NCBI RefSeq assembly: GCF_000011125.1
Contig: NC_000854.2
Location: forward strand, 930,001 to 962,000
Direction: 5' to 3'
Length of the DNA: 32,000 nt
DNA from: Aeropyrum pernix K1
Lineage (GTDB): Archaea; Thermoproteota; Thermoprotei_A; Sulfolobales; Acidilobaceae
Shown here: positions 8,555 to 30,434 of the stretch, one piece after another
Layout: every line of letters starts with the position of its first letter
Numbering within the stretch: the stretch's first letter is position 1
Made by a program: the position numbers and the translations under genes
The notes under the pieces: generated by a model
Databases searched by the model: none
Told to the model about the DNA's origin: nothing
The model's input: only the letters and a program-made list of their open reading frames with translations

Positions 8555-9481
8555 TCAAGAGTGGCCTAGAACTGTGGAGACGTAGAGGGGTAGAAGGAGG
8601 CTGAGCAGCAGCGTGAGCAAGGCACCCTGCACAAAGGCTGGGAGAGCAGCCCTCTCTCCCGAGGATGCTAGTATCACGGGTAGGCCGGTGTCCATCGTGG
8701 TGGCCCCTCCGAACGCCACAGCCTGAATAGGGATCCTCCTTGCTAGTAGGGGGTAGACTACGATATGGAAAGCCTCCCTAAGCATGTTACCCACTAAAGC
8801 AACAGCACCGTAGTAGGGGTCAATGGTATAGAGAAGGGGGCCTGCCAGGGAGTACCAGCCTGACGAGACTCCCATTGCAACACCGGCCTCCAGAGACCAG
8901 CCCAGGACGAAGGCAGCGGCCGCACCGCCTATCACACCGCCCACCAGGCATGAGAGGGCTAAGAGTAGGCCCAGTCTGCCTCCTCTAAGCATTCCCCTAA
9001 GACCGGCAGCACCTCCTACAAGATAGCCAGCCTGGAAGAGGAGGATGTAGAGGAGAAGCGTTGACACTACATCCGGGAACGAACTGCCAGTAAGCCACCC
9101 TGAGGCCAGTCCTGCCAGGAAGAATGCTAGAATCACGGCGGGGCTAGAGTACAAGCTTGAGCCCCCGGCTACCTGACTACCGATACCTACGGACTCTTGG
9201 CTGGAATTCCCTGCCAGGAGGGCCGCCACTGCTACGCTGGCCGCTCCCGGCAGAATAGCAATAAGGATTGAACCGTATAGTATCCCCGCCGCACGCTCTA
9301 AATCGATACTTGAGCCGACACCGGCTCCTATCGTGAAGACCAGCGCCCATACAACGGGATATAGTAAGTGCTCAACAGCCCTGGAGTAAGCCCCTCTCAT
9401 GTAAGCACCAGCCACTACACCCGCTACAGCTGGTACAGCCAGCTCCATAGCCTGCATCCAGAGAATGGATCCCACTACCAC
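8555..9481 (-). CDS. Polytopic membrane protein, possibly of the DUF340/LysO-like exporter family
   Basis: 308 aa, almost entirely hydrophobic and Gly/Ala/Leu-rich, with about 8 or more predicted helices by eye. The family assignment is a guess from size and composition. Alternative ATG starts lie at 9457 and 9448. Confidence 0.6.
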   Translation of the reverse strand: MVVGSILWMQAMELAVPAVAGVVAGAYMRGAYSRAVEHLLYPVVWALVFTIGAGVGSSIDLERAAGILYGSILIAILPGAASVAVAALLAGNSSQESVGIGSQVAGGSSLYSSPAVILAFFLAGLASGWLTGSSFPDVVSTLLLYILLFQAGYLVGGAAGLRGMLRGGRLGLLLALSCLVGGVIGGAAAAFVLGWSLEAGVAMGVSSGWYSLAGPLLYTIDPYYGAVALVGNMLREAFHIVVYPLLARRIPIQAVAFGGATTMDTGLPVILASSGERAALPAFVQGALLTLLLSLLLPLYVSTVLGHS

Positions 9482-9496
9482 CTGCGGGATATAAGC

Positions 9497-10441
9497 GTGA
9501 GTCGAGACAGACTCCCGAAGGTGCCGGGGTTGCCGCTCTACAGGGTCTCAGTCTACGCCTCAGAAAGTGAAGCAGATAGGGTGAGGGAGGTCCTCAAAGG
9601 GGCCAGGCTATACTGGTATGAGTACTCCCTCGTATTCAACGGCGAAACATCTGTGGCTGCGTTCGAGATTTACGCCCCCGAGGAGGCTCTCCAGGACCTC
9701 TTACCCGGGCTCTATAGGGCTATCGACCTGAGGAAGAGGGAGAACGCCTTCTACATAGAGAAGGTGGAGACGGGCGTGGGGGCGTCTAGGAGGGTCCTCT
9801 CGAGGAGGTTCCTTAGGAGTGTTAGGATCCTTAGGGGCAGGCCTCTCGAGGAGGTTCTGGACGAGGCGAACGACAGGTCCTCAGTAGACCTCTTGCAGGC
9901 CCTTCTCGCAGCTATAGCGGGCGTGGTTGCGCTTGCGGGTATAATAACCGGGAGTATGATCCTCCTCGTCGGCGCTATGCTCCTCTCGCCCATACTCTCC
10001 CCCATATACTCAGCAGCTGTGGGTCTATCATTTGGCAGGCTCGAAATAGCTGTGAGAGGCGGATTCTCCCTTCTGATACTAACTTTCTTGGCGCTTGCAT
10101 CATCCACTACCGCGGCGGCTATAGTCTCCGTGTTTCTCCCGGGACCGGATGCGGTACTGGAGGCGGCAAGGCAGGCTTACACCCCCCACTACATAGACTT
10201 GATTATAGGTCTCGCCCTCGGGGCGGCGGTTTCTCTAGCGGCAGTAGCGAGGCTCAACGAACCCCTCATAGGGGTTGCAGTGGCAGCCGCCCTCATACCG
10301 CCTCTTGCAGCCCTGGGGCTGGGTTTAGCGTTTCTCGACTACGAGCTAAGCCTAGGATCTCTGGCAAAAGCTTCTGCCAACATGGCTGGCCTGCTAGCTG
10401 GCTCGACCCTAACGTTTAACATATTAAGGAGGCTACTCTAA
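9497..10441 (+). CDS. DUF389-family membrane protein (soluble N-domain plus hydrophobic C-domain)
   Basis: The ORF is open from 9368, but that part overlaps the divergent gene, so the GTG at 9497 or 9521 is more likely. LLVGAMLLSPILSPIY matches the conserved GAMLxSPLxxPi motif I recall for DUF389/TIGR00341. Confidence 0.6.
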   Translation: MSRDRLPKVPGLPLYRVSVYASESEADRVREVLKGARLYWYEYSLVFNGETSVAAFEIYAPEEALQDLLPGLYRAIDLRKRENAFYIEKVETGVGASRRVLSRRFLRSVRILRGRPLEEVLDEANDRSSVDLLQALLAAIAGVVALAGIITGSMILLVGAMLLSPILSPIYSAAVGLSFGRLEIAVRGGFSLLILTFLALASSTTAAAIVSVFLPGPDAVLEAARQAYTPHYIDLIIGLALGAAVSLAAVARLNEPLIGVAVAAALIPPLAALGLGLAFLDYELSLGSLAKASANMAGLLAGSTLTFNILRRLL

Positions 10442-10565: not shown

Positions 10566-11132
10566 GTGGCTCGGGAGGGGTGTCTAGCGTTGAATGTGGA
10601 GTGCAGAGGGAGGAGGGTGAAGTTCGAGGCTAGAATGGAGACACTCCCTAACGGGAGGCAGATTCTTGTTGATAGAGTCGTATTTCCCGACAGCGTGGCT
10701 GTACTGCCTCTTGTAGAGAAGGATGGAGAATGGCACGTAGTCCTTGTGAGGCAGTTTAGACCGTCCATAGGGAAGTGGACGCTGGAGGCCCCTGCTGGCA
10801 CGCTGAAGGAGGGGGAGACGCCTGAGGCAGCGGCGGCCAGAGAGCTTGAAGAGGAGGCTGGGTTAAAAGCCAAGGCCCTGGTCAGGGTAGGGGGTGGCCA
10901 CGTCTCGCCGGGGTACTCCACCGAGTACATCCACCTCTTCCTAGCCTACTCGCTGGAGAAGGGGGAGATGAGCCCTGAGGAGCATGAGGTTATAGAGGGG
11001 GTTGTTGAGATGAGGCTCTCAGAGGCTCTCGAGTCTATCGAGTCCGGGGTTATAGAGGACCTCAAGACCATAGCCCTCGTTATGGCCGCCGCTTCAAGGG
11101 TGCACCAGCTTGAGGCTGGCGGTGGCGTATAG
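10566..11132 (+). CDS. Nudix hydrolase (ADP-ribose pyrophosphatase-like)
   Basis: Complete Nudix box GTLKEGETPEAAAARELEEEAGL (G-x5-E-x7-REUxEExGU). GTG start per the ORF track. Confidence 0.85.
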   Translation: MAREGCLALNVECRGRRVKFEARMETLPNGRQILVDRVVFPDSVAVLPLVEKDGEWHVVLVRQFRPSIGKWTLEAPAGTLKEGETPEAAAARELEEEAGLKAKALVRVGGGHVSPGYSTEYIHLFLAYSLEKGEMSPEEHEVIEGVVEMRLSEALESIESGVIEDLKTIALVMAAASRVHQLEAGGGV

Positions 11133-11949
11133 CACCGGTGATCCTGCTGGCCGGGGGGCTGGCCGGGCCCTAGCCCGCCTCCTGTCCGCGGAACCGACGA
11201 GCTGCCCCGGAGCGGTGGAGTGTTTCAAGGCAGGATACCTAACTATAGCCGGCTTCCCGGTGGAGGCTGTCAGGCTGGAGATGCTGGACGAGGCGCCGGA
11301 CCCCCAAGCTAGCGCGGTCATAGTCCTCTCAAAACACAGGGCTGAGAGCGGGAGGAAGAGCTTGACAGTCCATCATCCAGGAAACCCCACCGAGGACAAC
11401 AGCCTAGGAGGTAGACCTATGGAGCTGGCCGTAGCGTATCCGGCGTTGGCCAAGGCTCTGCTTATATCCCTGGCCAAGGCCTCCCGGGAGACTGGTCTAG
11501 CGGAGAGCTATGAGGTAACGCTGGAGGCGACGCACCACGGCCCCACAACCCCCAGCAAGCCCGTGGTGTTCGCGGAGCTCGGGAGCACTGAGGAGGACTG
11601 GCGAAACCCGCTGGGCTGGGAAACCCTAGCCCTGGCTGTAGAGGAGGCCATCAAAACCCTGCCCCAGATAGAGCGAGAGTGTATACCCGCCGCAGGCTTC
11701 GGTGGCACCCACTACGTGCCTAAACACACTAGGCTCCAGCTGGAGAGCGGATACTGTATAGGCCACACTATACCCCGCTACGCCTTCGACCGCGGCGTCA
11801 CGGCCGAGGTCCTCAAAAACGCCATACTCAAGAGTTATCCAGGCCCGGCTAGGGTGGCTCTAGTTGAGAAGAAGAGCCTGAAATCGCCTCAGAGGAGGAT
11901 GGTGGAGGAGGCGTCCGAGGAAGCGGGGGCGAAGGTAGAATACATCTAG
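11110..11949 (+). CDS. dtdA: Archaeal-type D-aminoacyl-tRNA deacylase (DtdA)
   Basis: 279 aa with N-terminus RLAVAYSTGDPAG and the motif EATHHGPT, characteristic of the archaeal DTD family as I recall it. It overlaps the Nudix gene's 3' end by 23 nt. Confidence 0.7.
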   Translation: MRLAVAYSTGDPAGRGAGRALARLLSAEPTSCPGAVECFKAGYLTIAGFPVEAVRLEMLDEAPDPQASAVIVLSKHRAESGRKSLTVHHPGNPTEDNSLGGRPMELAVAYPALAKALLISLAKASRETGLAESYEVTLEATHHGPTTPSKPVVFAELGSTEEDWRNPLGWETLALAVEEAIKTLPQIERECIPAAGFGGTHYVPKHTRLQLESGYCIGHTIPRYAFDRGVTAEVLKNAILKSYPGPARVALVEKKSLKSPQRRMVEEASEEAGAKVEYI

Positions 11950-11975
11950 TTCAAGGCTGGCGGGTTTGTGAAAGA

Positions 11976-12051
11976 TGGTAGCCGGGCCGGGATTCGAACC
12001 CGGGTCACGGGGGCCAAAACCCCGCATCCTGGGCCGCTAGACGACCCGGCT
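11976..12051 (-). tRNA. tRNA-Gln (anticodon UUG) with genomically encoded CCA
   Basis: Folded by hand on the minus strand. Acceptor stem is AGCCGGG/CCCGGCU (A1:U72), and the D stem is GUCU/GGAU (includes G-U pairs). The anticodon stem is CGGGG/CCCCG with loop UUUUGGC. The T arm is CCGGG-UUCGAAU-CCCGG, followed by discriminator A and CCA. 76 nt, no intron. Confidence 0.9.
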
Positions 12052-12117
12052 ACTGGCCCGAGAGCCATGTTTACCATAGATATCCTGCCCTAAAGGATAT
12101 TTGGTTTAACACTCCGA

Positions 12118-12127
12118 GAGGGCAAAA
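12118..12127 (-). terminator. Oligo-T termination signal (minus strand TTTTGCCCTC), distal copy
   Basis: Plus strand GAGGGCAAAA. It is one of two copies of the same decamer downstream of the minus-strand gene ending at 12249. Archaeal terminators are typically T-tracts. Confidence 0.3.
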
Positions 12128-12197
12128 CCCGCTGGAGCCCATGGCGTCCTGGCCCATGCTGGTGGTATGGTGGGACGTGTTGGAACGGGTTAACGCG

Positions 12198-15876: not shown

Positions 15877-16548
15877 GTGTGGAGGATGGAGTATCACCCC
15901 TTTGTGCTGAGGGTTAGGGGGGCTAGGGTCCTGGTTGTGGGGGGCGGCGGTGTCGGGGGCAGGCGAGCGGTCCTGCTCGCTTCCAAGGGCGCTAAGGTTA
16001 GAGTGGTATCCCTTGAATTCTCCCAGGAGCTGCTCCGGGCTGCCGAGAGGCTTGGGATCGAGCTTATAGAGGGGGGTTTCGGCGAGGCTAGGAGGCATAT
16101 CCCCTGGGCTTCTATAGTCGTCATAGCAACACCCCATACGGGGGAGGCTGAAGAAATTGCTAGGGAGGCTTTGAAGGCTGGAAAGCTGGTTAACGTTGCA
16201 GCCGACCATAGGCTAGGGAACCTTCTCTTCCCCTTCGCAGGAGAGTCGAAGGGCCTCCTTGTGGGTGTGACTAGCCTTGGAGTCTCAGGCCTCGCCGCTA
16301 GAAGGGCTCTGGAGAAGATAATCGAGCTGCTTGATGGGGATGAGGAGGTAGAGTGTCTTCTAGAGACCCACGGGAGGCTGAAAAGGCTGTTGTTTGAGGT
16401 GGTCGAGGACTCGAGGCTCAGGATGGAGGTCCACACTTCGCTCTGGAATGACGCCGAGTATAGGAGGCTCTGTAGGGAGGGCCGTGTTGAGGAGGCTATG
16501 AGTAGGGCTTTGGAGGTGGCTAGGAGTGTCTCGGGAGCCCGCCTGTAG
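15877..16548 (+). CDS. sirC: Precorrin-2 dehydrogenase / sirohydrochlorin ferrochelatase (siroheme synthase N-domain, SirC/Met8-like)
   Basis: 223 aa. The Rossmann motif VLVVGGGGVGGRRAVLLASKGAKVRVVS is typical of the CysG N-terminal domain family. It starts 5 nt after the ThrC-like stop. Confidence 0.75.
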   Translation: MWRMEYHPFVLRVRGARVLVVGGGGVGGRRAVLLASKGAKVRVVSLEFSQELLRAAERLGIELIEGGFGEARRHIPWASIVVIATPHTGEAEEIAREALKAGKLVNVAADHRLGNLLFPFAGESKGLLVGVTSLGVSGLAARRALEKIIELLDGDEEVECLLETHGRLKRLLFEVVEDSRLRMEVHTSLWNDAEYRRLCREGRVEEAMSRALEVARSVSGARL

Positions 16549-17248
16549 CTACCTCGTGTTAACCCCTAGCGAGGACCTCGCAATAGAGCTGCACAAGCTC
16601 CTGGGGGGGAGCACGTTCTGGATACCGGTTATGGGGTTTAGAGAAGTCGAAGGGTGGCGGAATTCCCTCTTGAGGGCGCTGCGCCGGTGCCCTGTCCTGG
16701 GTATAACCAGCCCCCGCGGGGCCGAGCTGCTTGCTAGGGCCCCGGAGGTCCTCGAGGCTGCGGAGAGGGTGTATGCCGTCGGCCCGCAGACGGCGAGGGT
16801 GCTAGTGGAGATGGCGGGTGTGAAGCCGGTTGTACCCAGCAGTGGTTACAGCGTATCCTCCATGCTTAAGGAGGCGGAGGCTGCTGGTGAGAGGTGTATC
16901 GTGCTGGCGAGGAGCAAGGCTGGCCTGGGCAAGGGTGTTGAGGGGGTTGGGCTCAGGGTCTTGGAGGAGGCTGTGTACGAGCCGGTTATTAGGAGGGAGA
17001 TGCTGGAGGAGGCTGCTAGGCTGAAAGTTGACGTAGCGATACTGACGAGCGGGGAGATAGCGAGGATGTACTGTAGAGCCCTTGAGAAGGGGGGCGGCGG
17101 TGCAGGGGGGTATGTGGCAATAGGAGTATCGACAGCGCTTGCCGCCTCCTCGTGCCCGCCCAGGCCCCTCTGCGTCCCCTCCTCGGCGAGGAGGGAGGAG
17201 CTGGCCCGAGCGGCTCTAGCCCTCTGCAGGCTTCTCAAGAGCGGCTAG
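16526..17248 (+). CDS. hemD: Uroporphyrinogen-III synthase
   Basis: About 230-240 aa with a HemD-like two-lobe pattern (LGITSPRGAELL ... VYAVGPQTARVL ... AILTSGEIARMY). It either overlaps the sirC 3' end or starts at the GTG at 16556, 8 nt after it. Confidence 0.65.
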   Translation: MSREPACSYLVLTPSEDLAIELHKLLGGSTFWIPVMGFREVEGWRNSLLRALRRCPVLGITSPRGAELLARAPEVLEAAERVYAVGPQTARVLVEMAGVKPVVPSSGYSVSSMLKEAEAAGERCIVLARSKAGLGKGVEGVGLRVLEEAVYEPVIRREMLEEAARLKVDVAILTSGEIARMYCRALEKGGGGAGGYVAIGVSTALAASSCPPRPLCVPSSARREELARAALALCRLLKSG

Positions 17249-19094: not shown

Positions 19095-19331
19095 ATGAGG
19101 CTCGTAACAGTAAAGATGCCCGAGATGTATGTCAAGGGTATCGACGAGCTAGTCAGAGCCGGGAGATACAGCAGCCGGAGTGAAGTGATCAGGATAGCAG
19201 TTAGGGAGCTGCTCAAGAGGGAGTTATGGGGGACGGCTGCTCCAACAGTAGGCATACCCCTCGCCCGGGTCGGGCTGGAGCCCCTGGGAGCGGGGATAGA
19301 AGAAGAGTCGCTCCAGCAACCCGAGTTTTAG
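19095..19331 (+). CDS. Ribbon-helix-helix (CopG/NikR-N-like) DNA-binding protein
   Basis: 78 aa. MRLVTVKMPEMYVKGIDELVRAGRYSSRSEVIRIAVRELLKRE shows the beta-strand/helix/helix RHH pattern. Confidence 0.75.
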   Translation: MRLVTVKMPEMYVKGIDELVRAGRYSSRSEVIRIAVRELLKRELWGTAAPTVGIPLARVGLEPLGAGIEEESLQQPEF

Positions 19332-19481: not shown

Positions 19482-20468
19482 CTACCTTATGTAGCCGGGC
19501 TTCAAGTCTTCGAGGCTGAATATGGCCATGGCGTCCCTCGGCCTACACTTGGCTTTGGCCTCCTCCAGAACCATGTTTATCCTCTCCTTGCTCGTCGCGT
19601 GGACCATGAAGTAGCATATGTGCCTCCAAGCGCCCGGCGGGTAGCTCTCCCTGAGGACAACGTGGGTGCTGTACGGCAACTCGGCCGCCCTAACGCAAGT
19701 CTCCTCGCCACCCCCCTCAGGCTCCATAACAACCATAGCATTCTCGGTGAACCCTGCCTTGTGACCGTCAAGGGCCAGGCCCGGGTCCATCAGAACGCCC
19801 TTGTCGAGCAGGAGCTTAACCTGGCTGAGGACCTCGTCCACACTAATACCGAGCCTCTCAGCCGCGTGTGAGTAGGGATTAAGGTTGAGATGTAGCACCC
19901 TCACCAGCCTCGGGAGCAGGGGGTCTACCCCGAGGTCCTCAAGCTTTGGCGGCTTCTCCTCCACCCGCCAATACCGGCCGCTCCTCGATATACCCTCCCT
20001 CAGGTCGTACTTGACGCTAAGCTTGTACGTCTTCCTGCTGAAGAGTGCTATCCAATCCTTGACATCCACCTTTCTGGCGGCCTCGTCAACCGCTCTGAGA
20101 AGCTCCTCCCTGGTGGGCCTCTTGATCACTATCCAAACATTGTAGACGGGGTGGTTCCTCAGGTAGTTGTGGGTGACATCCGGGTCTCCGCGGAAGAGGT
20201 TAGCGAGCTCTCTGTACCTTTCTCCAGCGGCGAAGGCGACTAGCGCGGCGGTCTTGCCCTGGGCGCGGTAGTTATAGTAGAAGCCGATTCTCTTAACTAT
20301 CCCCGCCTTGGCAAGCTCCTTCAGCCTCTCCACAGCCTTCTCCGGGCTGAGTCCCACGCTCCTGGCCGCGTCTCCTATAGGGTCTGGGGTTAGCTGGAAG
20401 TTGTACTGGAGCTCCATAAGAAGGTCTATATCCTTTTCGCTGAGAAGCTGGGCCATGCCTGAAGCCAT
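19482..20468 (-). CDS. Fused AhbA/AhbB-type (NirD/L/G/H family) siroheme decarboxylase
   Basis: 328 aa comprising two Lrp/AsnC-like HTH plus effector-like repeats (LSEKDIDLLMELQYNFQLTPDPIGDAARSVGLSPEKAVERLKELAKAGIVKRIG..., and a second repeat from LPRLVRVLHLNLNPY...). It sits in a tetrapyrrole gene context. Confidence 0.7.
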   Translation of the reverse strand: MASGMAQLLSEKDIDLLMELQYNFQLTPDPIGDAARSVGLSPEKAVERLKELAKAGIVKRIGFYYNYRAQGKTAALVAFAAGERYRELANLFRGDPDVTHNYLRNHPVYNVWIVIKRPTREELLRAVDEAARKVDVKDWIALFSRKTYKLSVKYDLREGISRSGRYWRVEEKPPKLEDLGVDPLLPRLVRVLHLNLNPYSHAAERLGISVDEVLSQVKLLLDKGVLMDPGLALDGHKAGFTENAMVVMEPEGGGEETCVRAAELPYSTHVVLRESYPPGAWRHICYFMVHATSKERINMVLEEAKAKCRPRDAMAIFSLEDLKPGYIR

Positions 20469-23816: not shown

Positions 23817-25151
23817 ATGCCGGGAGTGCCCTATAGGGTGGACTCCGTCTTGGCAGGGAATTCTGGCCACACTATCGACACTCTGCTCCTCACCTTCGAC
23901 GACGTAGCCATACTACCCGGTCTGAGCACAGTGGAGCCTCACGACGTGGAGCTCTCCAGCAGGGTGAGTAGGAGCATATTCGTGAGCACACCCCTCGTCT
24001 CCAGCCCTATGGATACCGTGACGGAGTGGAGAATGGCCGCCGCCCTTGCGAGGCTTGGAGCCGTGGGGGTAATACACAGGAACATGCCGCGGGAGGAGCA
24101 GGCAAGGCATGTAAGCATGGTTAAGAGCGTTTCTCCATCGCCTTGGAGCGAGGTGCCCAGGATTAGGCTGCCAGACGGGCTGGAGAACTACTCCCTGATC
24201 CTGGAGGAGCTTGACGCTGGAGCAGCCGTAGTTTTCGGCGACGACGGTATAAAGGGGTATCTAGTACTCGAAAGGCCCGACGCCCAGCTGTGGCTAGAGA
24301 AGGCGAGGTATCTCAGCCTCTACCTGACGAGGATTAGGCCCTTCCCCACGATAGATGGTGAGGGAAGGCTCGTGGTGGGAGCCGCTGTCAGCCCCTTCGA
24401 CCTTGACAGGGCGAGGCTTCTTGAAAAGAGTGGCGCGGACTTTCTAGTCATCGATGTGGCCCACCTCCACAACAGAAACGCTCTCTCAAGCCTTTCCAGG
24501 CTCGTGAAGGAGGTGTCCATCGATGTCGTCGCCGGGAATCTAGGCACCAGGGAAGGGGTTCTGGACACTCTAGCCAGGGCCGAGGAGGTGGCTGGCCTGA
24601 GGATGGGTATATCCAGCGGCAGTATATGCAGCACAGGCGAGGTTGCTGGCGCTGCAGTACCTACCCTGACTGCGGTTATGAACGCGGTCTTAGCCCTAGA
24701 GGAACTGGGCCTCGCCGGGAGGATACCCATAATCGCTGACGGGGGGGTGAGGAATGCTGGCGACGCCGCGAAGGCGATAATAGCGGGGGCCTCTGCCGTC
24801 ATGGGGGGCAGGCTCTTCGCGGGAGCCGACGAGAGCCCGGGCCCCAGGATAAGGGTTGGCGACAAGCTTTACAAGCCCTACCGCGGCATGGCGAGTAGAG
24901 GGGCTATGGAGAGGAGGTTCGCCGTAGACCGTTACTCGAGGCAGGCAAAGGCGGTTGAGGAGGGTGTGGAGGGGCTAGTGCCTTACACAGGCCCAGTTGT
25001 CAAGACGCTCTACGAGCTGGCGGAGGGGCTGAAGGCGGCGCTCGGCTATGCAGGTGCCCAGGACGTGACCTCGGCCTGGAAGGCCAAGCTAGCCAGGGTC
25101 ACGCCGACGGGCTCCAGGGAGATTAGGCCTCACGACATACTCCTAGGGTGA
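23817..25151 (+). CDS. guaB: IMP dehydrogenase family protein with a shortened Bateman (CBS) insert
   Basis: LTFDDVAILPG, SSPMDTVTE, GVIHRN, the catalytic-loop-like GISSGSICST, IADGGVRNAGD, YRGMAS and EGVEGLVPY are all IMPDH blocks. Its ATG immediately follows the KaiC-like stop codon. Confidence 0.75.
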   Translation: MPGVPYRVDSVLAGNSGHTIDTLLLTFDDVAILPGLSTVEPHDVELSSRVSRSIFVSTPLVSSPMDTVTEWRMAAALARLGAVGVIHRNMPREEQARHVSMVKSVSPSPWSEVPRIRLPDGLENYSLILEELDAGAAVVFGDDGIKGYLVLERPDAQLWLEKARYLSLYLTRIRPFPTIDGEGRLVVGAAVSPFDLDRARLLEKSGADFLVIDVAHLHNRNALSSLSRLVKEVSIDVVAGNLGTREGVLDTLARAEEVAGLRMGISSGSICSTGEVAGAAVPTLTAVMNAVLALEELGLAGRIPIIADGGVRNAGDAAKAIIAGASAVMGGRLFAGADESPGPRIRVGDKLYKPYRGMASRGAMERRFAVDRYSRQAKAVEEGVEGLVPYTGPVVKTLYELAEGLKAALGYAGAQDVTSAWKAKLARVTPTGSREIRPHDILLG

Positions 25152-25633
25152 CGAGGCGAGGGGTGGCTCTAGTGGCTCGAAGGCTCCCCTCATCCCCTGG
25201 TAGGGTCTATGCGGTTAAGATCGATGAGGGCGAGGACGTCCACAGCGTCCTATCCAGCCTGGCGGAGGCTGAGGACCTGGGCTTCGCTATGGTAACAGGT
25301 ATTGGGGGTATGGCGGAGGCGACTGTCGCCTTCTACAGCCCTCCCGAGGCTACGTACTATACTGTAGACGTTAAACCTCCCGAGGGGAGGGTGATTGAGG
25401 TTGCAGCCATGACCGGGAACATAGTCAAGACATCGCAGGGGTACAGCGTTCACATCCACGTGGCCCTAGGCGTCTCCCCGGGGAAGAGCATATCCGGCCA
25501 TCTCGTTAAAGGTGTCGTCAAGCCTTTCATGGAGGTTTTCGTTGTAGAGCTTGTTTCTGGACAGGGCACCCCAGGCACAAGCGTGTTCGACCATAGAGAG
25601 GGGTTCAAAGCCTCGTACAAGAGGCTCGAGTAG
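25148..25633 (+). CDS. PPC (DUF296) domain protein
   Basis: 161 aa. The pattern VYAVKIDEGEDVHSVLSSLAEAE...GIGGMAEATVAFY...YSVHIHVALG...GHLVKGVV matches the PPC/DUF296 fold pattern. The GTG start overlaps the IMPDH stop (GTGA), and the GTGs at 25163 and 25172 are alternatives. Confidence 0.65.
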   Translation: MTRRGVALVARRLPSSPGRVYAVKIDEGEDVHSVLSSLAEAEDLGFAMVTGIGGMAEATVAFYSPPEATYYTVDVKPPEGRVIEVAAMTGNIVKTSQGYSVHIHVALGVSPGKSISGHLVKGVVKPFMEVFVVELVSGQGTPGTSVFDHREGFKASYKRLE

Positions 25634-25639
25634 ACACTA

Positions 25640-26407
25640 CTATCCAGTGCTGCGCTGGCTCCTCCAACTCCACGCGGCAGCCCTTACTATATCACCCTCG
25701 TCCAGCGAAGCCAGAGGCTTCCACCCCGAGTGGACTACTGCGACCCTCGTGGCCGCGTCGACCATAGCGGCCACAACCTCTGACAGGGCCCCCTCGCAGT
25801 GGGTGAAAACGTCTATAGGCTCGGCGGCATCTCCGGCTCGAGCACCCTCAACTGCGGCCTTAAGGGCTGACAAAGGCTCCAGGAAGCCCCACGGGCTCTC
25901 AACACCCACTAGAGCTATAGCCCTCCCGAAGGAGGCCATGGCCTCTAGACCAGCCTCAACAGGCTCGTCGGGAGACACGCGGGGGTGGAGACCTTCCGCC
26001 GCCTCTGAGACCGGTGTAAGAAGCTCCCCAGGCTCTATAGCCTGGAGAACATCCCAACTTGTGAACACGCCGGTAACACCACCTAAGTCCACTAGTAGAG
26101 TGGATAGGCCGGTCCTGACCATCAGCTCCGCCGCCTCTCCCACAGGAGTATCCCCCCCTACTACTGGGGGCCTAGCCTTGGCTACTAATGAGAGGGGAGT
26201 GTCCCACAGCCCAGCCCCGAGCCTCTCGAAAAGAGACGGTATGTCACCCGGCTCTACAACCCCTGTGACCGCCACCCCCCTCCCTACTAGTATCCTGTGT
26301 TTATGCAGCACAAGCAAGGCGGACACTGCATCTCCCAGGCTTGTGGAGGGCTCGAAGGTTATGGCGGGGGCAGATGCGTAGAGAGAAACCTTATCATTGA
26401 GGCCCAA
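25640..26407 (-). CDS. Stand-alone CBS-domain protein (about four CBS motifs)
   Basis: 255 aa with repeated CBS-like segments (SLGDAVSALLVLHKHRILV..VTGVVEPGDI; PVGEAAELMVRTGLSTLLV..VTGVFTSWDVLQAI; and others). TTG start, with a TATA-like GTATAAAG about 24 nt upstream, consistent with a leaderless transcript. The antisense 276-aa ORF is judged a shadow. Confidence 0.55.
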   Translation of the reverse strand: MGLNDKVSLYASAPAITFEPSTSLGDAVSALLVLHKHRILVGRGVAVTGVVEPGDIPSLFERLGAGLWDTPLSLVAKARPPVVGGDTPVGEAAELMVRTGLSTLLVDLGGVTGVFTSWDVLQAIEPGELLTPVSEAAEGLHPRVSPDEPVEAGLEAMASFGRAIALVGVESPWGFLEPLSALKAAVEGARAGDAAEPIDVFTHCEGALSEVVAAMVDAATRVAVVHSGWKPLASLDEGDIVRAAAWSWRSQRSTG

Positions 26408-26426
26408 AGCCCTAAATACACCCCAG

Positions 26427-26434
26427 CTTTATAC
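26427..26434. promoter_or_regulatory. TATA-like element (CTTTATAC / GTATAAAG) in the divergent CBS / GHMP-like intergenic region
   Basis: Read directly. The spacing fits a leaderless start of the minus-strand CBS gene at 26407. It could also serve the plus-strand operon. Confidence 0.4.
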
Positions 26435-26500
26435 TGGCTTCCCCCAGGCTAATTTACCTAAGCCCTCCAAACCAGGGACCAAATACTTGGGAGGAGGCCC

Positions 26501-27424
26501 GTGGGGAGTGTAGTCTATGTTGAGGGCGGCTCAAGGCTTCACGCTGGGTTCCACATTGTTGATCCGCAGCGTGGAGTGTGGGGTGGAGCCGGCTTTTACG
26601 TGGAGGAGCCGAGGGTCAGGGTTGAGGCGTGGGACTGCGGTGAGGCCAGGTGGGAGGTTGACAGTGACATAGCCACCCTGCTAGAGAGGGCTGGACTCGC
26701 GTGGGGCTGCCTTAAGATAGCTAGCAGGCCTCCCAGGCACATGGGTCTAGGGTCTACTACACAGCTCTCACTCGCCGCCTCAATGGCGCTCTTAGCACTG
26801 AAGGGGCTCCGCCCATCTATCCCAAGTCTCGCGGCCAGGCTGGGGAGGGGCCGCTTCTCGGCGGTGGGCACACTCCTAGCCGTCCACGGCGGCTTTGTCC
26901 TGGATTCAGGGAGCGTGTCAACTCCTCCCATATCCGCCGTGAGGGTGCCGGAGGATTGGAGGTTCGTCCTGGTTATCCCCCAGCTGGAACCGGGGTTCGA
27001 GGAGGGGCGGGCGGAGGATTTGGCCCTGAAGACTGCGGGCTTGAGGGCTGCTAGGGGGGGTGACTTGAGGTCTCGGGGGGCTCTCCTCCTGGCGGTCGGC
27101 ATTGCTAGGGGGGACCTTGACATTGCTCTAGAGGGCCTCTCATCTATGCAGGCAGGGACGGGGCTATTGTTCCAGGAGGTTCAGGGGGCTGTCTTTAGGC
27201 GGGACCTCATGAATATTGTTGACGAGGCCTCTAGGAACGGGGTCAAACTCGCCCAGTCCAGCTGGGGGCCCACTCTCTATACTATATCGCATGAGTCGAC
27301 AGCGGATTCCGACGCCCGCATGCTAAGGGCTATACTCCGTTCCCATGGTATTAGGGGGGAGGTACTCGTGACGAGACCCAGGAACAAGGGTCTAACCCTT
27401 GAGGTGGGGATGGATGGTGGTTGA
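26501..27424 (+). CDS. GHMP-kinase-superfamily protein, beta-ribofuranosylaminobenzene-5'-phosphate (beta-RFAP) synthase-like
   Basis: 307 aa. The N-terminal GSRLHAGF...WGGAGFYVEEPRVRVEA and the GHMP motif-II-like HMGLGSTTQLSLAAS fit my recollection of the TIGR00144-type family. Its 3' end overlaps the IPCT start. Confidence 0.55.
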   Translation: MGSVVYVEGGSRLHAGFHIVDPQRGVWGGAGFYVEEPRVRVEAWDCGEARWEVDSDIATLLERAGLAWGCLKIASRPPRHMGLGSTTQLSLAASMALLALKGLRPSIPSLAARLGRGRFSAVGTLLAVHGGFVLDSGSVSTPPISAVRVPEDWRFVLVIPQLEPGFEEGRAEDLALKTAGLRAARGGDLRSRGALLLAVGIARGDLDIALEGLSSMQAGTGLLFQEVQGAVFRRDLMNIVDEASRNGVKLAQSSWGPTLYTISHESTADSDARMLRAILRSHGIRGEVLVTRPRNKGLTLEVGMDGG

Positions 27425-28160
27425 CGCTGGCCTAGTGTTGGCGGCCGGCTTCTCAAGGAGGTTCAGAGGCCTCCTGGGGGTCCATAAGGTTGCAGCCGGT
27501 GTGAGGGGCTACCCGCTGCTGTGCTACCCGGTGACAAGCCTAGCCCTGGCTGGCGTGGACAGGGTCTTCGTCGTAGCGTCGCAATTCAACCTTAACGTGG
27601 TAGAGCTTGTCCTCGGCCACTGCCCATTCCGAGTTTCTGGCGTGCTAATATCGAGCCTCTCCACACTCGGCAACGGTTTCAGCCTTGTAGAGGGCCTCAG
27701 GGAGGCTGGCCTGAGAGGGTCCAGATGCCTGGCGGTGTCCATGGCCGATCACGTGTACCCTCCCAGCATAGCTAGGAGGCTGATTGAGGCTGGATGTAAC
27801 ACGCTCGGAGTAGACTCCAGGCCTAGGTATATAGAGGTGGGAGAGGCGACGCACGTTTCCCTAGAACCGGGGGCTGGCGTGAGGCTTGGAAAGGATGTTG
27901 AGGGATGTTGTGTCGACATAGGCATACACACGATAGAGGCGGGTATAGCCTCGATAGGCTGCATAGACCTTCCCCCCCGTGGTGAGGCCAGCGTGTCCCA
28001 GCTCATCACCTGCGCTGCCAGAAAGGGGTACACGTTCAAGCTTGTAGACGTGGACGGGGGCCCTTGGATGGAGGTCGACTCTCCCGAGGACCTAGAGAGG
28101 CTCCTGCAGGGTGACGGTCTGGAGGTCCTGGAGGCTGTTAGGAGTGAGTGGGGATTCTAA
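27414..28160 (+). CDS. CTP:L-myo-inositol-1-phosphate cytidylyltransferase (IPCT)-like nucleotidyltransferase
   Basis: The N-terminal GLVLAAGFSRRF is the nucleotidyltransferase G-rich loop. The protein is about 250 aa and lies immediately upstream of, and overlapping, a CDP-alcohol phosphatidyltransferase, with MIPS nearby. The ATG at 27414 is preceded by GAGGTG, and the TTG at 27399 is an alternative. Confidence 0.7.
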   Translation: MVVDAGLVLAAGFSRRFRGLLGVHKVAAGVRGYPLLCYPVTSLALAGVDRVFVVASQFNLNVVELVLGHCPFRVSGVLISSLSTLGNGFSLVEGLREAGLRGSRCLAVSMADHVYPPSIARRLIEAGCNTLGVDSRPRYIEVGEATHVSLEPGAGVRLGKDVEGCCVDIGIHTIEAGIASIGCIDLPPRGEASVSQLITCAARKGYTFKLVDVDGGPWMEVDSPEDLERLLQGDGLEVLEAVRSEWGF

Positions 28161-28782
28161 ACCCACGGACGGCCCTGTCTCTAGATTTTTGAACAGGAGG
28201 ATAGCCTCGGCTATAGCCTCCGCCATCATCGCCCTCAACTTGCCCCTCACCCCTAACATGCTCTCGCTAATATCGTTCCTGACGGCCGCCGCCGCTGCCC
28301 TGTTTATAGCGGGTGGCCAGCTCCTCGTAGGCGGCCTTCTAGTCCAGCTTTCATCGGTGCTGGACGGCGTCGACGGTATAGTTGCGAGGAGGCTGAGGGC
28401 CGCCTCCAAGGCAGGAGGCTTCCTGGACACAATGCTAGACAGGTACGCGGACACCGTCATATACCTGGCACTGGCATACGCAGCCGTCGCAACCCATGGT
28501 CTCGAAACGTGGGCTGTCCTCACAGCTGTGCTGGCAGTGTCGGGGGACATCATGGTAAGCTATCTCCACACCCGGGGCGAGAGAGACGCCGGTGTCCACC
28601 CATCCCTCGTCGGCCCCTTAGACTCCCTTGCCTCCAGGGATGTGAGGCTCCTCATAGTAGCAGTTATCACCGCGGCCGGAAGGCCTCTGGAGGCGATGGC
28701 GGCGGTGGCGCTTCTCTCACACGCCTACGTTGCCGTAAAGTCGATCTACCTGTTCTCCCTCCTCAAATCCAAGGGTGTCTAG
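28144..28782 (+). CDS. CDP-alcohol phosphatidyltransferase, di-myo-inositol-phosphate-phosphate synthase (DIPPS)-like
   Basis: Complete signature DGIVARRLRAASKAGGFLDTMLD (D-G-x2-A-R-x8-G-x3-D-x3-D), and the protein is multi-pass hydrophobic. The ORF is open from 28111, and the GTG at 28144 overlaps the IPCT 3' end by 17 nt. Confidence 0.75.
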   Translation: MSGDSKPTDGPVSRFLNRRIASAIASAIIALNLPLTPNMLSLISFLTAAAAALFIAGGQLLVGGLLVQLSSVLDGVDGIVARRLRAASKAGGFLDTMLDRYADTVIYLALAYAAVATHGLETWAVLTAVLAVSGDIMVSYLHTRGERDAGVHPSLVGPLDSLASRDVRLLIVAVITAAGRPLEAMAAVALLSHAYVAVKSIYLFSLLKSKGV

Positions 28783-28890
28783 ACGGAGGGCTCCGTTAAC
28801 GCTTAAATCCGGGGGGTCCAACTTTTATCATGGGGTTTTCAAAGTCTCGGAGCACCACTATCTAGCCTCCCCAGGGGCTCTTGATTAGCG

Positions 28891-28898
28891 TAAAATAA
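28891..28898 (+). promoter_or_regulatory. TATA-like box (TAAAATAA) upstream of the myo-inositol-1-phosphate synthase gene
   Basis: It lies 35-42 nt upstream of the GTG at 28933, and GGAGGTGA sits just before the start codon. Confidence 0.45.
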
Positions 28899-28932
28899 CC
28901 CCCTTTAACTCTACATCCGGAGGTGACGTGGC

Positions 28933-30111
28933 GTGGTGCGTATAGTAGTCTTGGGGCAGGGTCTAGTTGCCACACACCTCGCAGTCGGCCTCGAGAGGAT
29001 CAAATCCGGGGAACTCGAGCCTGTCGGTGTCCCCCTCGAGAGGTTCGAGTATGAGATACCTGTGAAGAGTCTTGAGATAGTCGGGTCTTTCGACGTAGAC
29101 CCCGGGAAGGTGGGCAGAACTATATACCAGGTTGCCAAGGATATGCTGGGGAGCCAGCTGCCGGTGCCCCAGAGCCTTGAGGCGGTTAGGGTTGAGCGGG
29201 GTATACATGCTGGTAGCGTTAAGGGGCTAATCCCTGGTGCCCGTGGCCTGGATGAGGACCTGGGTATGGAGGAGGCTGTGGAGATTGTTGCTGACAGGCT
29301 TCAGCATTTAAGGCCGGACGTCGTTATCAACGTGATAACCACTGAGAGAGCAGAGCCCTTCGAGACGCTCGAGAGCGTTCGCGACAGGGTCAGGAGGGGG
29401 CTAGTTAGCGCGAGCCAGGCTTACGCCCTAGCTGTACTCAGGTATGCGGAGAGGGAGGCTAGGAGGGTTGCGCTGGTCAACGCCATACCAGCGCCTCTAG
29501 CTAACGATCCAGTACTAGTCTCGATGTTTGAAGAAGCCGGAAGCCTCCTTCTAGGCGACGATGGGGCGACGGGAGCAACCCCCCTTACGGCGGACCTGCT
29601 TGAGCATCTAGCAGAGAGGAATAGGAGGGTGCTTTCGATAGCCCAGTTCAACATCGGCGGCAACCTCGACTTCCTCGCTCTCACCCTTCCAGAGAAGAAT
29701 ATTATGAAGGAGAAGACTAAGAGTAGCGTCGTTAAGGACATACTGGGCTACGACGTCCCCCACTACATAAAGCCCACGGGCTTCCTGGAGCCCCTCGGCG
29801 ATAAGAAGTTCGTTTCAATGCATATCGCGTGGAAGACTTTCAACGGCCTTGAGGACGAGCTCGTTGTGAACATGAGGATCAACGATAGCCCGGCTCTCGC
29901 TGGCCTCCTCGTCGACCTGGCGAGGATAAGCTATAGCCTGCTGGAGAGAGGGTACAAGGGTACTGTGTACGAGGTCAACGCGTTCTTTATGAAGAATCCG
30001 GGCCCAAGGGAGGCTCCAAACATAGCTAGGATTACGGCCTTCCAGAACATGGTGAAGCTCCTGCAGGGTCTAGGAGCCCTGAGTACCGGCTTGCCTGGGA
30101 GAAGGGCTTAG
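28933..30111 (+). CDS. ino1: myo-Inositol-1-phosphate synthase (archaeal short type)
   Basis: 392 aa. The N-terminal Rossmann-like RIVVLGQGLVATHL, the overall length and the adjacency to IPCT/DIPPS fit archaeal MIPS. Confidence 0.75.
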   Translation: MVRIVVLGQGLVATHLAVGLERIKSGELEPVGVPLERFEYEIPVKSLEIVGSFDVDPGKVGRTIYQVAKDMLGSQLPVPQSLEAVRVERGIHAGSVKGLIPGARGLDEDLGMEEAVEIVADRLQHLRPDVVINVITTERAEPFETLESVRDRVRRGLVSASQAYALAVLRYAEREARRVALVNAIPAPLANDPVLVSMFEEAGSLLLGDDGATGATPLTADLLEHLAERNRRVLSIAQFNIGGNLDFLALTLPEKNIMKEKTKSSVVKDILGYDVPHYIKPTGFLEPLGDKKFVSMHIAWKTFNGLEDELVVNMRINDSPALAGLLVDLARISYSLLERGYKGTVYEVNAFFMKNPGPREAPNIARITAFQNMVKLLQGLGALSTGLPGRRA

Positions 30112-30434
30112 CCCTCGCCTCCACCTGCCTCTTTGTAGGTGCTTTCTATGCATGCGTCCATGCAATCCTGCGTCTCCTCTTTGCCAATGCCGTGCTTTTC
30201 TAGACACTCCTTTAGACACCTACACTCCCCCTCCTCCAGCGATGAGACTCTAAGCTCTGGTATGCCGGGAGAGGGGCTGACGGCGACTACCCGGCAGTCC
30301 TCGAAAACGAGTTCTAGGGCGTATGTGCTCAAGGCGACTCCCACAAGCTTCTTCCCGATGAGGAGGCTCAGCTCCTCAAGCGTCCTCTCGAGAGCCTCCT
30401 CTAGAGACTCCCTCCCGTTATCGCCGCTGCCCAA
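30108..30434 (-). CDS. Small hypothetical protein with a Cys-rich C-terminus
   Basis: 108 aa, TTG start. The acidic N-terminal half is followed by ECRCLKECLEKHG...QDCMDACIES (5 Cys). I recognise no family. A TATA-like CTATATAC lies about 65 nt upstream on the minus strand. Confidence 0.45.
   Translation of the reverse strand: MGSGDNGRESLEEALERTLEELSLLIGKKLVGVALSTYALELVFEDCRVVAVSPSPGIPELRVSSLEEGECRCLKECLEKHGIGKEETQDCMDACIESTYKEAGGGEG

Follow-up and report, generated by a model that had tools for sequence, protein, structure and literature searches.

A divergent RFAP-synthase-family gene at the head of the di-myo-inositol phosphate genes of Aeropyrum pernix K1, probably an accidental neighbour

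The window analysed here, a stretch of 32,000 nucleotides from the chromosome of Aeropyrum pernix K1 (NC_000854.2, positions 930,001 to 962,000; coordinates below count from its first letter), contains a co-oriented run of four genes. A gene for a GHMP-fold protein stands first, followed by those for CTP:inositol-1-phosphate cytidylyltransferase (IPCT), CDP-inositol:inositol-1-phosphate transferase (DIPP synthase, DIPPS) and myo-inositol-1-phosphate synthase (MIPS), the genes for di-myo-inositol phosphate (DIP), a protectant against heat and salt that A. pernix accumulates. The original prediction for this locus, made from the sequence alone, described three overlapping co-oriented genes followed by MIPS, and the open reading frames (ORFs) and junctions lie where it placed them. 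For the leading gene it offered two explanations: that an unrelated gene of the pterin-pathway type had been captured beside the DIP genes, or that its product has a role in inositol-phosphate solute synthesis. The comparative evidence presented below favours the first, in that the linkage is confined to the Aeropyrum lineage. The features of the run and its flanks are as follows.

26408-26500, plus strand: divergent intergenic region of 93 nt, with a candidate archaeal promoter and a Shine-Dalgarno-like motif (putative function)
26501-27424, plus strand: GHMP-fold gene of the RFAP-synthase/ForT family, encoding a predicted C-ribosyl transferase dependent on phosphoribosyl pyrophosphate (PRPP) (BAA80511.1, UniProt Q9YBT7, 307 aa)
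27401-27406, plus strand: GAGGTG, a Shine-Dalgarno-like motif within the GHMP-like coding sequence, 7 nt before the IPCT ATG (putative function)
27414-28160, plus strand: IPCT gene (Pfam/NCBIfam and PDB matches)
28144-28782, plus strand: DIPPS gene (BAA80515.2, 212 aa; Pfam/NCBIfam and PDB matches)
28783-28932, plus strand: spacer of 150 nt, with A/T-rich boxes, two T4 runs and GGAGGTGA at about 28918-28926, ahead of the MIPS start
28933-30111, plus strand: MIPS gene (BAA80516.1; Pfam Inos-1-P_synth, 88.5 bits)
30108-30434, minus strand: APE_1517a, gene for a 108-aa cysteine-containing hypothetical protein, convergent with MIPS and having 4 nt in common with the MIPS end

The GHMP-like ORF runs from a GTG at 26501 to a TGA at 27422-27424 and overlaps IPCT by 11 nt, counting from the IPCT ATG at 27414; the IPCT reading frame is open from a TTG at 27399. 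IPCT ends with a TAA at 28158-28160 and overlaps by 17 nt with DIPPS, whose GTG at 28144 is also the start chosen in GenBank BAA80515.2. MIPS begins with a GTG at 28933, after the spacer. Overlaps of this kind carry little meaning here. Among the other co-directional junctions of the window, as drawn from crude ORF calls, 9 of 17 overlap or have a gap of at most 5 nt, and several tight ones join genes without an evident functional tie: a KaiC-like gene and the IMP dehydrogenase (IMPDH) gene (gap 0), IMPDH and a PCC-domain gene (4-nt overlap), and a NUDIX and a D-aminoacyl-tRNA deacylase gene. Because overlapping junctions are common in the window, also between apparently unrelated genes, the 11-nt GHMP-like/IPCT overlap is by itself not informative, being no more than chance gives there.

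The family calls that had been made for IPCT, DIPPS and MIPS hold up against Pfam, NCBIfam and the PDB. The IPCT-like protein matches NTP_transf_3 and the N-terminal half of NF041135 (positions 3-212, 72 bits), and the DIPPS-like protein matches CDP-OH_P_transf and the C-terminal half of the same model (positions 225-412, 105 bits); each match is below the NF041135 cut-off of 580 bits, which was set for the fused protein. An archaetidylinositol-phosphate synthase model scores nearly as well on the DIPPS-like protein (100.5 bits), and the DIPPS assignment thus leans on context. The closest PDB entries for IPCT are the A. fulgidus IPCT 2XME (E 3.3e-14) and the IPCT/DIPPS protein 4MND, and those for DIPPS are 4O6M (AF2299) and 4MND (the DIPPS domain of AF0263), with E about 2e-19. 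Each half of the characterised bifunctional IPCT/DIPPS enzyme has a separate homologous protein here, and MIPS adjoins the two genes. The window resembles known DIP clusters, such as that of the fused A. fulgidus enzyme AF0263 (4MND), in having IPCT, DIPPS and MIPS in one orientation, and differs from them in having an RFAP-synthase-family gene joined on ahead of these, a feature of the Aeropyrum lineage alone, and in that its cluster is without a phosphatase gene. The original prediction had remarked that the pathway's phosphatase is not encoded here, and we likewise found no phosphatase gene among the annotated neighbours in the window. In A. pernix, as in Hyperthermus butylicus and Thermotoga maritima, IPCT and DIPPS were reportedly described as separate genes by Rodrigues et al. 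in 2007.

The protein encoded at the head of the run (Q9YBT7) is named a 'hypothetical protein' by NCBI/RefSeq and 'Beta-ribofuranosylaminobenzene 5'-phosphate synthase' (RFAP synthase) by UniRef. Its Pfam match to GHMP_kinases_C is above the cut-off (35.8 bits against 21) and that to GHMP_kinases_N just below (21.8 against 22.3). The RFAP-synthase models TIGR00144 and NF040726 are the only significant NCBIfam families, and this holds for 25 of 25 members of the clade to which the protein belongs (best TIGR00144 member, E 6.8e-32), so that the GHMP/RFAP-synthase-like call of the original prediction stands at the family level. With a clade profile, the closest relative in the PDB by sequence is ForT, the formycin C-glycoside synthase, which is PRPP-dependent and itself homologous to RFAP synthases (E 1e-19), with homoserine and mevalonate kinases far behind. 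An AlphaFold2 model computed from the clade alignment (pLDDT 91.2, pTM 0.90) gives the same ranking: in a Foldseek search of the PDB the ForT structures 8AOZ, 6YQQ and 8AP0 come out on top (TM 0.82-0.83, E 2.6e-20), followed by homoserine kinase (TM 0.69, E 1e-14) and by other kinases and decarboxylases (TM about 0.7, E 1e-14 or weaker). By sequence and by modelled structure, the nearest relatives appear to be C-glycoside synthases and not kinases. The GHMP kinases (homoserine, mevalonate and galacto-kinases) have the fold and the phosphate-binding loop in common with the protein, which is more distant from them in sequence and structure than from ForT and has the arginines predicted to hold the PRPP 5'-phosphate. 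At the level of the modelled fold and the aligned active site, the protein is thus shown to belong to the RFAP-synthase/ForT branch of the GHMP superfamily.

The active-site evidence comes from alignment with ForT, in which PRPP is contacted or positioned by R19, H99, T106, G134, R135 and S139; in mutagenesis R19, T106 and R135 proved essential for PRPP binding, and G134P bound about 100-fold more weakly (PMC8183095). All six have counterparts in the A. pernix protein, namely R12, H80, T87, G115, R116 and S120. The phosphate loop, ForT H99-S104, has equivalents that include H80, G82, G84 and S85. Across the 25-member clade alignment R12, H80, G82, G84, T87 and S120 are invariant, and R116 is at least 90% conserved in a 17-sequence family alignment. 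The catalytic end of the site is retained as well. E211 is the only ForT residue whose loss abolishes activity, and Q266 binds the substrate carboxylate (PMC9832568); the former corresponds to E172, which is invariant in 18 of 18 aligned sequences including ForT, and the latter to Q228, conserved in 16 of the 18. The same pattern links the protein to the beta-RFA-P/RFH-P synthases of methanopterin biosynthesis (MptG; MJ1427, MTH0830, AF2089), members of the only family that it matches significantly over its full length. With these GHMP-fold enzymes it has in common the RLHxG motif, the P-x-H-x-G-L-G-S-x-T phosphate loop, GRGxxS, the invariant glutamate and QSSWGP. Our reading from the alignments is that the protein works like an RFAP/RFHP synthase, by which PRPP and an aromatic carboxylate would yield a C-riboside, CO2 and pyrophosphate.

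The protein belongs to a single clade that is about 30% identical to Pyrodictiaceae, haloarchaeal and bacterial family members. In a word-indexed search about 46 proteins reached 40-54% identity, every one of them from Desulfurococcales or Acidilobaceae-type metagenome-assembled genomes (MAGs); identity falls to 31-36% for haloarchaeal proteins of the 'RFAP synthase family'. When 1.84 billion representatives were searched exhaustively with a profile, 3,275 family members emerged at E ≤1e-3, with only about 13 of the 50%-identity clusters above 285 bits. In a neighbour-joining tree of 279 family members the clade is monophyletic, and its sister sequences are metagenome proteins for which the only name recovered was Bathyarchaeota; the tree leaves orthology with canonical RFAP synthases unsettled. 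A genome scan gave 43 loci from 42 source genomes, labelled Aeropyrum, Acidilobus, Caldisphaera, Thermodiscus, 'Hestiella' and 'Calypsonella'. There is one locus per genome except in a Thermodiscus MAG, whose two hits resemble fragments of one gene. Many of the comparison loci are MAG contigs, and their taxonomy labels are uncertain. No Aeropyrum paralogue was returned by a search seeded with a Pyrodictiaceae homologue, which is weak negative evidence. The pattern fits a single, vertically inherited core gene that has diverged fast.

Gene neighbourhoods bear on the choice between the two original explanations. The neighbours in the window were matched against every fetched locus, with tblastn and with profile HMMs for IPCT, DIPPS and MIPS; the downstream sequence extends for at least 1 kb in 38 of the 43 archaeal orthologue loci and for at least 3 kb in 29. 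IPCT, DIPPS or MIPS lies within 10 kb of the orthologue in just one, a MAG labelled Aeropyrum sp. (L003), in which the GHMP-like protein is 52% identical and IPCT-DIPPS-MIPS is present. Beyond the scanned loci, A. camini (L068) and a metagenome contig (L075) have the A. pernix gene order. These genomes resemble A. pernix over the whole neighbourhood, which is syntenic from IMPDH to YjbQ in all four. The distance from the GHMP-like stop to the IPCT start varies among them (-11 nt in A. pernix, +4 in A. camini, +26 in both L003 and L075), showing that the overlap itself is not conserved. The IPCT-DIPPS overlap is kept, at 17 nt in A. pernix, A. camini and L075, 14 nt in L003 and 4 nt in a further locus, L069. 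Adjacency of the GHMP-like gene and the DIP genes is thus shown to be restricted to the Aeropyrum lineage, that is, to A. pernix, A. camini, L003 and L075. The original prediction had proposed this comparison, taking absence of the linkage from relatives as one sign of accident, and the outcome favours accident: no link to IPCT or DIPPS is found in the other 42 of the 43 loci or in a further locus, L076.

The other half of the comparison concerns what lies upstream of the GHMP-like gene in the window.

23817-25151, plus strand: IMPDH gene (Pfam IMPDH, 352.9 bits), member of a KaiC-IMPDH-PCC-CBS block
25148-25633, plus strand: PCC/PPC-domain protein gene (Pfam PCC, 82.5 bits), in 4-nt overlap with the IMPDH stop
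25640-26407, minus strand: CBS-domain protein gene (Pfam CBS, 55.7 bits), divergent from the GHMP-like gene

In four relatives the orthologue adjoins the CBS-PCC-IMPDH block in the orientation inverse to that of A. pernix, and DIP genes are missing. At these loci (L008 10001-13572, L010 1096-4667, L011 7078-10648 and L076 669-5076) the orthologue is co-directional with the CBS gene and 150-290 nt upstream of it, and PCC and IMPDH come next on the opposite strand, together with the KaiC-like gene in L076. The L076 protein is 54% identical to that of A. pernix, as close as the L003 and L075 proteins and closer than or equal to every other sequence from outside Aeropyrum, yet unlinked to DIP genes. 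The inverted orientation in these relatives points to a single-gene inversion in the Aeropyrum lineage. Conversely, the DIP genes occur without the GHMP-like gene, as IPCT-DIPPS-MIPS with an APE_1517a homologue in an unrelated neighbourhood (L069) and as IPCT-DIPPS alone (L070). What would be expected of a fifth DIP component, a linkage conserved across genomes with DIP genes, was not seen: the linkage is found in 1 of 43 loci, in A. camini and in L075, and the cassette stands alone in L069 and L070. A role of the GHMP-like gene in DIP synthesis is unsupported, and the adjacency is probably a local accident of gene order.

Two candidate links outside the Aeropyrum lineage were rejected. A weak NTP_transf_3 match upstream of the orthologue in L025, L071 and L072 is not IPCT; it is on the other strand, beside CbiZ, and scores only E 4e-4 with the IPCT profile. 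Nor did any contig prove to carry both orthologue and DIP cassette at a distance from each other: P0030 (174-kb contig) and P0067 (173.8-kb contig) lie on separate contigs. Neighbour clustering over 44 loci revealed no conserved partner across the clade, the best being a small ribbon-helix-helix (RHH) protein (11/44) and AspRS (8/44). The window has a homologue of this RHH neighbour, a 78-aa CopG-type protein encoded at 19095-19331 on the plus strand. The RHH gene is divergent from the orthologue and about 190 nt upstream of it in the 11 loci, and 7 kb away in A. pernix; in genomes other than this one the RHH protein might regulate the orthologue. The homologue in Pyrodictium occultum is likewise not near DIP genes, and adjoins an OMP-decarboxylase/HPS-family gene, DUF1464 and MoeA. 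In P. occultum (L074) the flanking genes are at 7206-7907 on the minus strand and 9117-10271 on the plus strand, and in a Pyrodictiaceae MAG (L060) at 9196-9900 (minus) and 11004-12149 (plus); they are of the OMP-decarboxylase/hexulose-phosphate-synthase family and DUF1464, with MoeA nearby. This Pyrodictium-type setting may be a C1 or pterin-related neighbourhood.

Gene order makes APE_1517a a stronger candidate for a DIP-linked accessory gene than the GHMP-like gene is. Its homologues follow MIPS in L003 (13662-13889), in L068 (8721-9012) and in L069 (8933-9151), the last a locus that has neither the GHMP-like gene nor the other Aeropyrum neighbours. No significant Pfam family was found for APE_1517a.

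It follows from these comparisons how the second explanation of the original prediction should be judged. A direct part for the GHMP-fold protein in inositol-phosphate solute metabolism, as an ATP-dependent inositol kinase in salvage or as a phosphoribosyl transferase acting on an inositol derivative, would account for the GHMP fold and for the 11-nt overlap with IPCT. An inositol kinase of a different fold lies near the DIP genes of Thermococcus kodakarensis. The conserved residues of the A. pernix protein are those predicted to hold the 5'-phosphate and pyrophosphate of PRPP, together with the catalytic glutamate of a decarboxylative, C-C bond-forming enzyme, and ForT is the closest structure, well ahead of the kinases. 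Adjacency is what remains in favour of such a role, and it is absent outside one lineage, while the cassette exists without the gene in L069 and L070. Moreover, the clade is also present in MAGs labelled Acidilobus and Caldisphaera, both of them acidophiles of terrestrial habitats, and DIP is a solute typical of hyperthermophiles from the sea. We give this explanation almost no credence.

Transcript signals were read from a simple A/T-box scan of the sequence and are suggestive only. Ahead of the GHMP-like GTG we find TTTATA at 26428-26433 and the Shine-Dalgarno-like GGAGGAGG at 26490-26497. The last 60 nt before the IPCT ATG are 62% G+C without a TATA-like box, and with GAGGTG 7 nt before the ATG this makes the GHMP-like/IPCT junction resemble an internal operon junction. 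In A. camini and L003 the IPCT start follows GGAGG or GGAGGG motifs comparable to the A. pernix GAGGTG. None of the four Aeropyrum-lineage genomes has an A/T box in the gap between the two genes, and each has a GGAGG-type motif. From the sequence it is plausible that GHMP-like and IPCT are translationally coupled and that the GHMP-like gene is co-transcribed with the DIP genes. The DIPPS-MIPS spacer looks different, with A/T-rich boxes at 28803 (TTAAAT), 28823 (TTTTATCA) and 28891 (TAAAATAA). A promoter of its own for MIPS is probable here, and the upstream transcript may end within the spacer.

Taken together, the explanation that we consider probable is that an RFAP-synthase-family enzyme, likely an RFA-P/RFH-P synthase, stands at the head of the DIP genes as an accidental neighbour and takes no part in DIP chemistry. 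The enzyme would join PRPP to an aromatic carboxylate with release of CO2 and pyrophosphate, and would most likely be the lineage's RFA-P/RFH-P synthase for a methanopterin-like modified folate. The older position of the gene was probably beside the CBS-PCC-IMPDH-KaiC block. In the Aeropyrum lineage it appears to have been inverted relative to that block, so that it now leads into an independently mobile IPCT-DIPPS-MIPS cassette, which elsewhere occurs on its own. Since there is no promoter room at the junction and a Shine-Dalgarno-like motif precedes IPCT, GHMP-like, IPCT and DIPPS probably form one transcript, driven from the promoter region at 26408-26500. Expression of IPCT-DIPPS would then depend on, or add to, the promoter of the GHMP-like gene, whose product would itself be without a role in making DIP.

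Several observations weigh against this explanation. The first group concerns the enzyme's identity. TIGR00144 scores 78.4 bits on the protein (E 5.6e-22, residues 11-301) against a cut-off of 113.5, and NF040726 scores 74.3 bits against a cut-off of 328. Elsewhere in the family, the Pyrodictiaceae homologue is likewise under the TIGR00144 cut-off (103.7 bits), haloarchaeal homologues reach 160-175 bits with NF040726, and only one protein, P0063, comes near that cut-off (311.6 bits). In the Methanothermobacter thermautotrophicus enzyme MTH0830, substitution of D19 or R26 raises the Km for p-aminobenzoate (PMC6787355). The A. pernix protein lacks equivalents of both, with Ile19 in the D19 column and a gap in the R26 column (ForT R33). 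The loop is variable across the clade, whose members have a gap or Val in the R26 column, and the equivalent of R26 is Arg in 12 of 12 non-clade sequences aligned; that of D19 is present in all of these, canonical, bacterial and Pyrodictiaceae-type homologues among them, except the haloarchaeal ones. The protein also departs from ForT, to which it is 22% identical: ForT T138 is replaced by F119, and S21, L24 and K263 by H14, F17 and Q225. ForT itself belongs to a bacterial secondary-metabolite cluster and acts on a pyrazole dicarboxylate. Scoring under both NCBIfam cut-offs and lacking the D19/R26 equivalents, the protein represents what by sequence is a divergent Acidilobaceae clade and not a certified RFAP synthase, and the label 'pterin-pathway gene' is one that we infer. 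The original prediction had held that the linkage would be accidental if orthologues were never next to IPCT/DIPPS and the protein scored as a bona fide RFAP synthase; the linkage is indeed mostly absent in relatives, and the HMM comparison it proposed gives the family match and not the bona fide score.

An observation on a second crenarchaeal group touches the same residues. Pyrodictiaceae-type homologues (L060 9959-10957; P0079, P0080, P0090, P0106) have His in place of ForT Arg19 (AHLH as against SRLH) and retain the D19/R26 equivalents that the Aeropyrum clade is without. The two crenarchaeal clades have thus diverged in complementary parts of the active site.

The altered substrate loop raises the alternative that the protein is a PRPP-dependent C-glycoside synthase for some other aromatic or heteroaromatic carboxylate, in the synthesis of a metabolite other than a methanopterin-like cofactor; its position beside the DIP genes would still be accidental. 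The sub-threshold scores, the shortened and variable N-terminal loop that carries D19 and R26 in MTH0830, and the hydrophobic residue at the position of ForT T138 are all compatible with a changed substrate, and the family already includes enzymes with other substrates, ForT and PyfQ (PMC8183095). The distribution of the gene speaks for a core cofactor function instead: one locus in all but one of the 42 source genomes, and a clade that extends over a whole archaeal family in housekeeping contexts, are expected of a core cofactor gene and not of a natural-product gene. In addition, the authors of the ForT study dispute the role of R26, the equivalent residue being about 18 Å from PRPP (PMC8183095). 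We regard a different substrate as unlikely.

The second kind of objection comes from inside the GHMP-like gene, where an A/T-rich stretch, TATACTATAT at 27278-27287, lies about 130 nt upstream of the IPCT ATG and may be an internal promoter. The IPCT-DIPPS promoter would then be within the 3' part of the GHMP-like gene, the two units would have no transcriptional link, and the overlap would reflect genome compaction, as the frequency of overlaps in the window would allow. The stretch encodes the conserved LYTI motif of the family, and this provides an independent reason for its presence. The G+C-rich 60 nt before IPCT, free of a TATA-like box, and the Shine-Dalgarno-like motif found before IPCT in three genomes are what would be expected of an internal operon gene. 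An internal promoter is a minor possibility that we consider doubtful.

Finally, the tight junction has lasted in four genomes through divergence to about 50% identity, although the whole nine-gene neighbourhood persists with it. A functional link through the cofactor is a further alternative. The Sulfolobus modified folate reportedly contains myo-inositol; if the modified folate of Aeropyrum carried an inositol-phosphate side chain, the CDP-inositol made by IPCT would serve both DIP and the cofactor, and a shared transcript would follow. The adjacency and probable co-transcription in the four Aeropyrum-lineage genomes are consistent with this. Opposed to it are the 42 of 43 orthologue loci, and L076, in which the enzyme is unlinked to inositol genes, the occurrence of the cassette without the enzyme, and the synteny of the entire neighbourhood, not of the GHMP-like/IPCT junction alone, in the four genomes. 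We hold a link of this kind to be highly improbable. Much the same applies to the broader proposal that the joining of the RFAP-synthase-family gene to the IPCT-DIPPS transcript was adaptive in the Aeropyrum lineage, either by providing CDP-inositol for a folate side chain or by bringing a C1 cofactor under the heat and osmotic control of DIP, which we see as a long shot. If CDP-inositol were used on the folate side chain, the clade's divergent substrate loop would reflect new arylamine-pterin chemistry.

A few further observations concern the quality of the comparison and other parts of the window. In the A. camini draft, the PCC, CBS, APE_1517a-like and YjbQ genes (L068 3726-4198, 4233-4987, 8721-9012 and 9118-9524) align in two to three pieces in different frames, which suggests frameshift errors of the draft and not real pseudogenes. 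A 276-aa ORF at 25551-26381 on the plus strand of the A. pernix window, antisense to the CBS-domain gene, is of low complexity and rich in Ser, Pro and Ala; we set it aside as most likely a spurious ORF of high G+C content. Elsewhere, a precorrin-2 dehydrogenase-type gene (NAD_binding_7) overlaps a HemD gene at 15877-17248 on the plus strand, and a gene for a fused NirD/L-like protein (AsnC-type siroheme decarboxylase) lies nearby at 19482-20468 on the minus strand. Together they resemble part of a gene cluster for siroheme or for an alternative haem pathway.

The DIP genes themselves were already known, and the GHMP-like gene already carried an automatic RFAP-synthase name in UniProt. No paper placing a GHMP or RFAP-synthase gene within a DIP cluster came up in a full-text literature search, nor did any under APE1512-1517. 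What is new here is modest: a divergent, sub-threshold Acidilobaceae clade with an apparently intact PRPP and catalytic site and an altered substrate loop, and a documented, lineage-specific rearrangement that placed one of its members at the head of the DIP genes.

In summary, the locus illustrates cleanly how an inversion can bring an unrelated gene to the front of a stress operon, and it warns against inferring function from gene overlap where archaeal genomes are compact. The DIP pathway stays as MIPS, IPCT, DIPPS and a phosphatase encoded elsewhere, and a fifth enzyme is not required. The evidence supports annotating Q9YBT7 and about 50 Acidilobaceae-type relatives as PRPP-dependent C-ribosyl transferases of the RFAP-synthase family. 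Arylamine-type modified folates occur in non-methanogenic hyperthermophilic archaea, and the members of this clade stand out as candidates for the arylamine branch of their synthesis in a group whose cofactor is uncharacterised.

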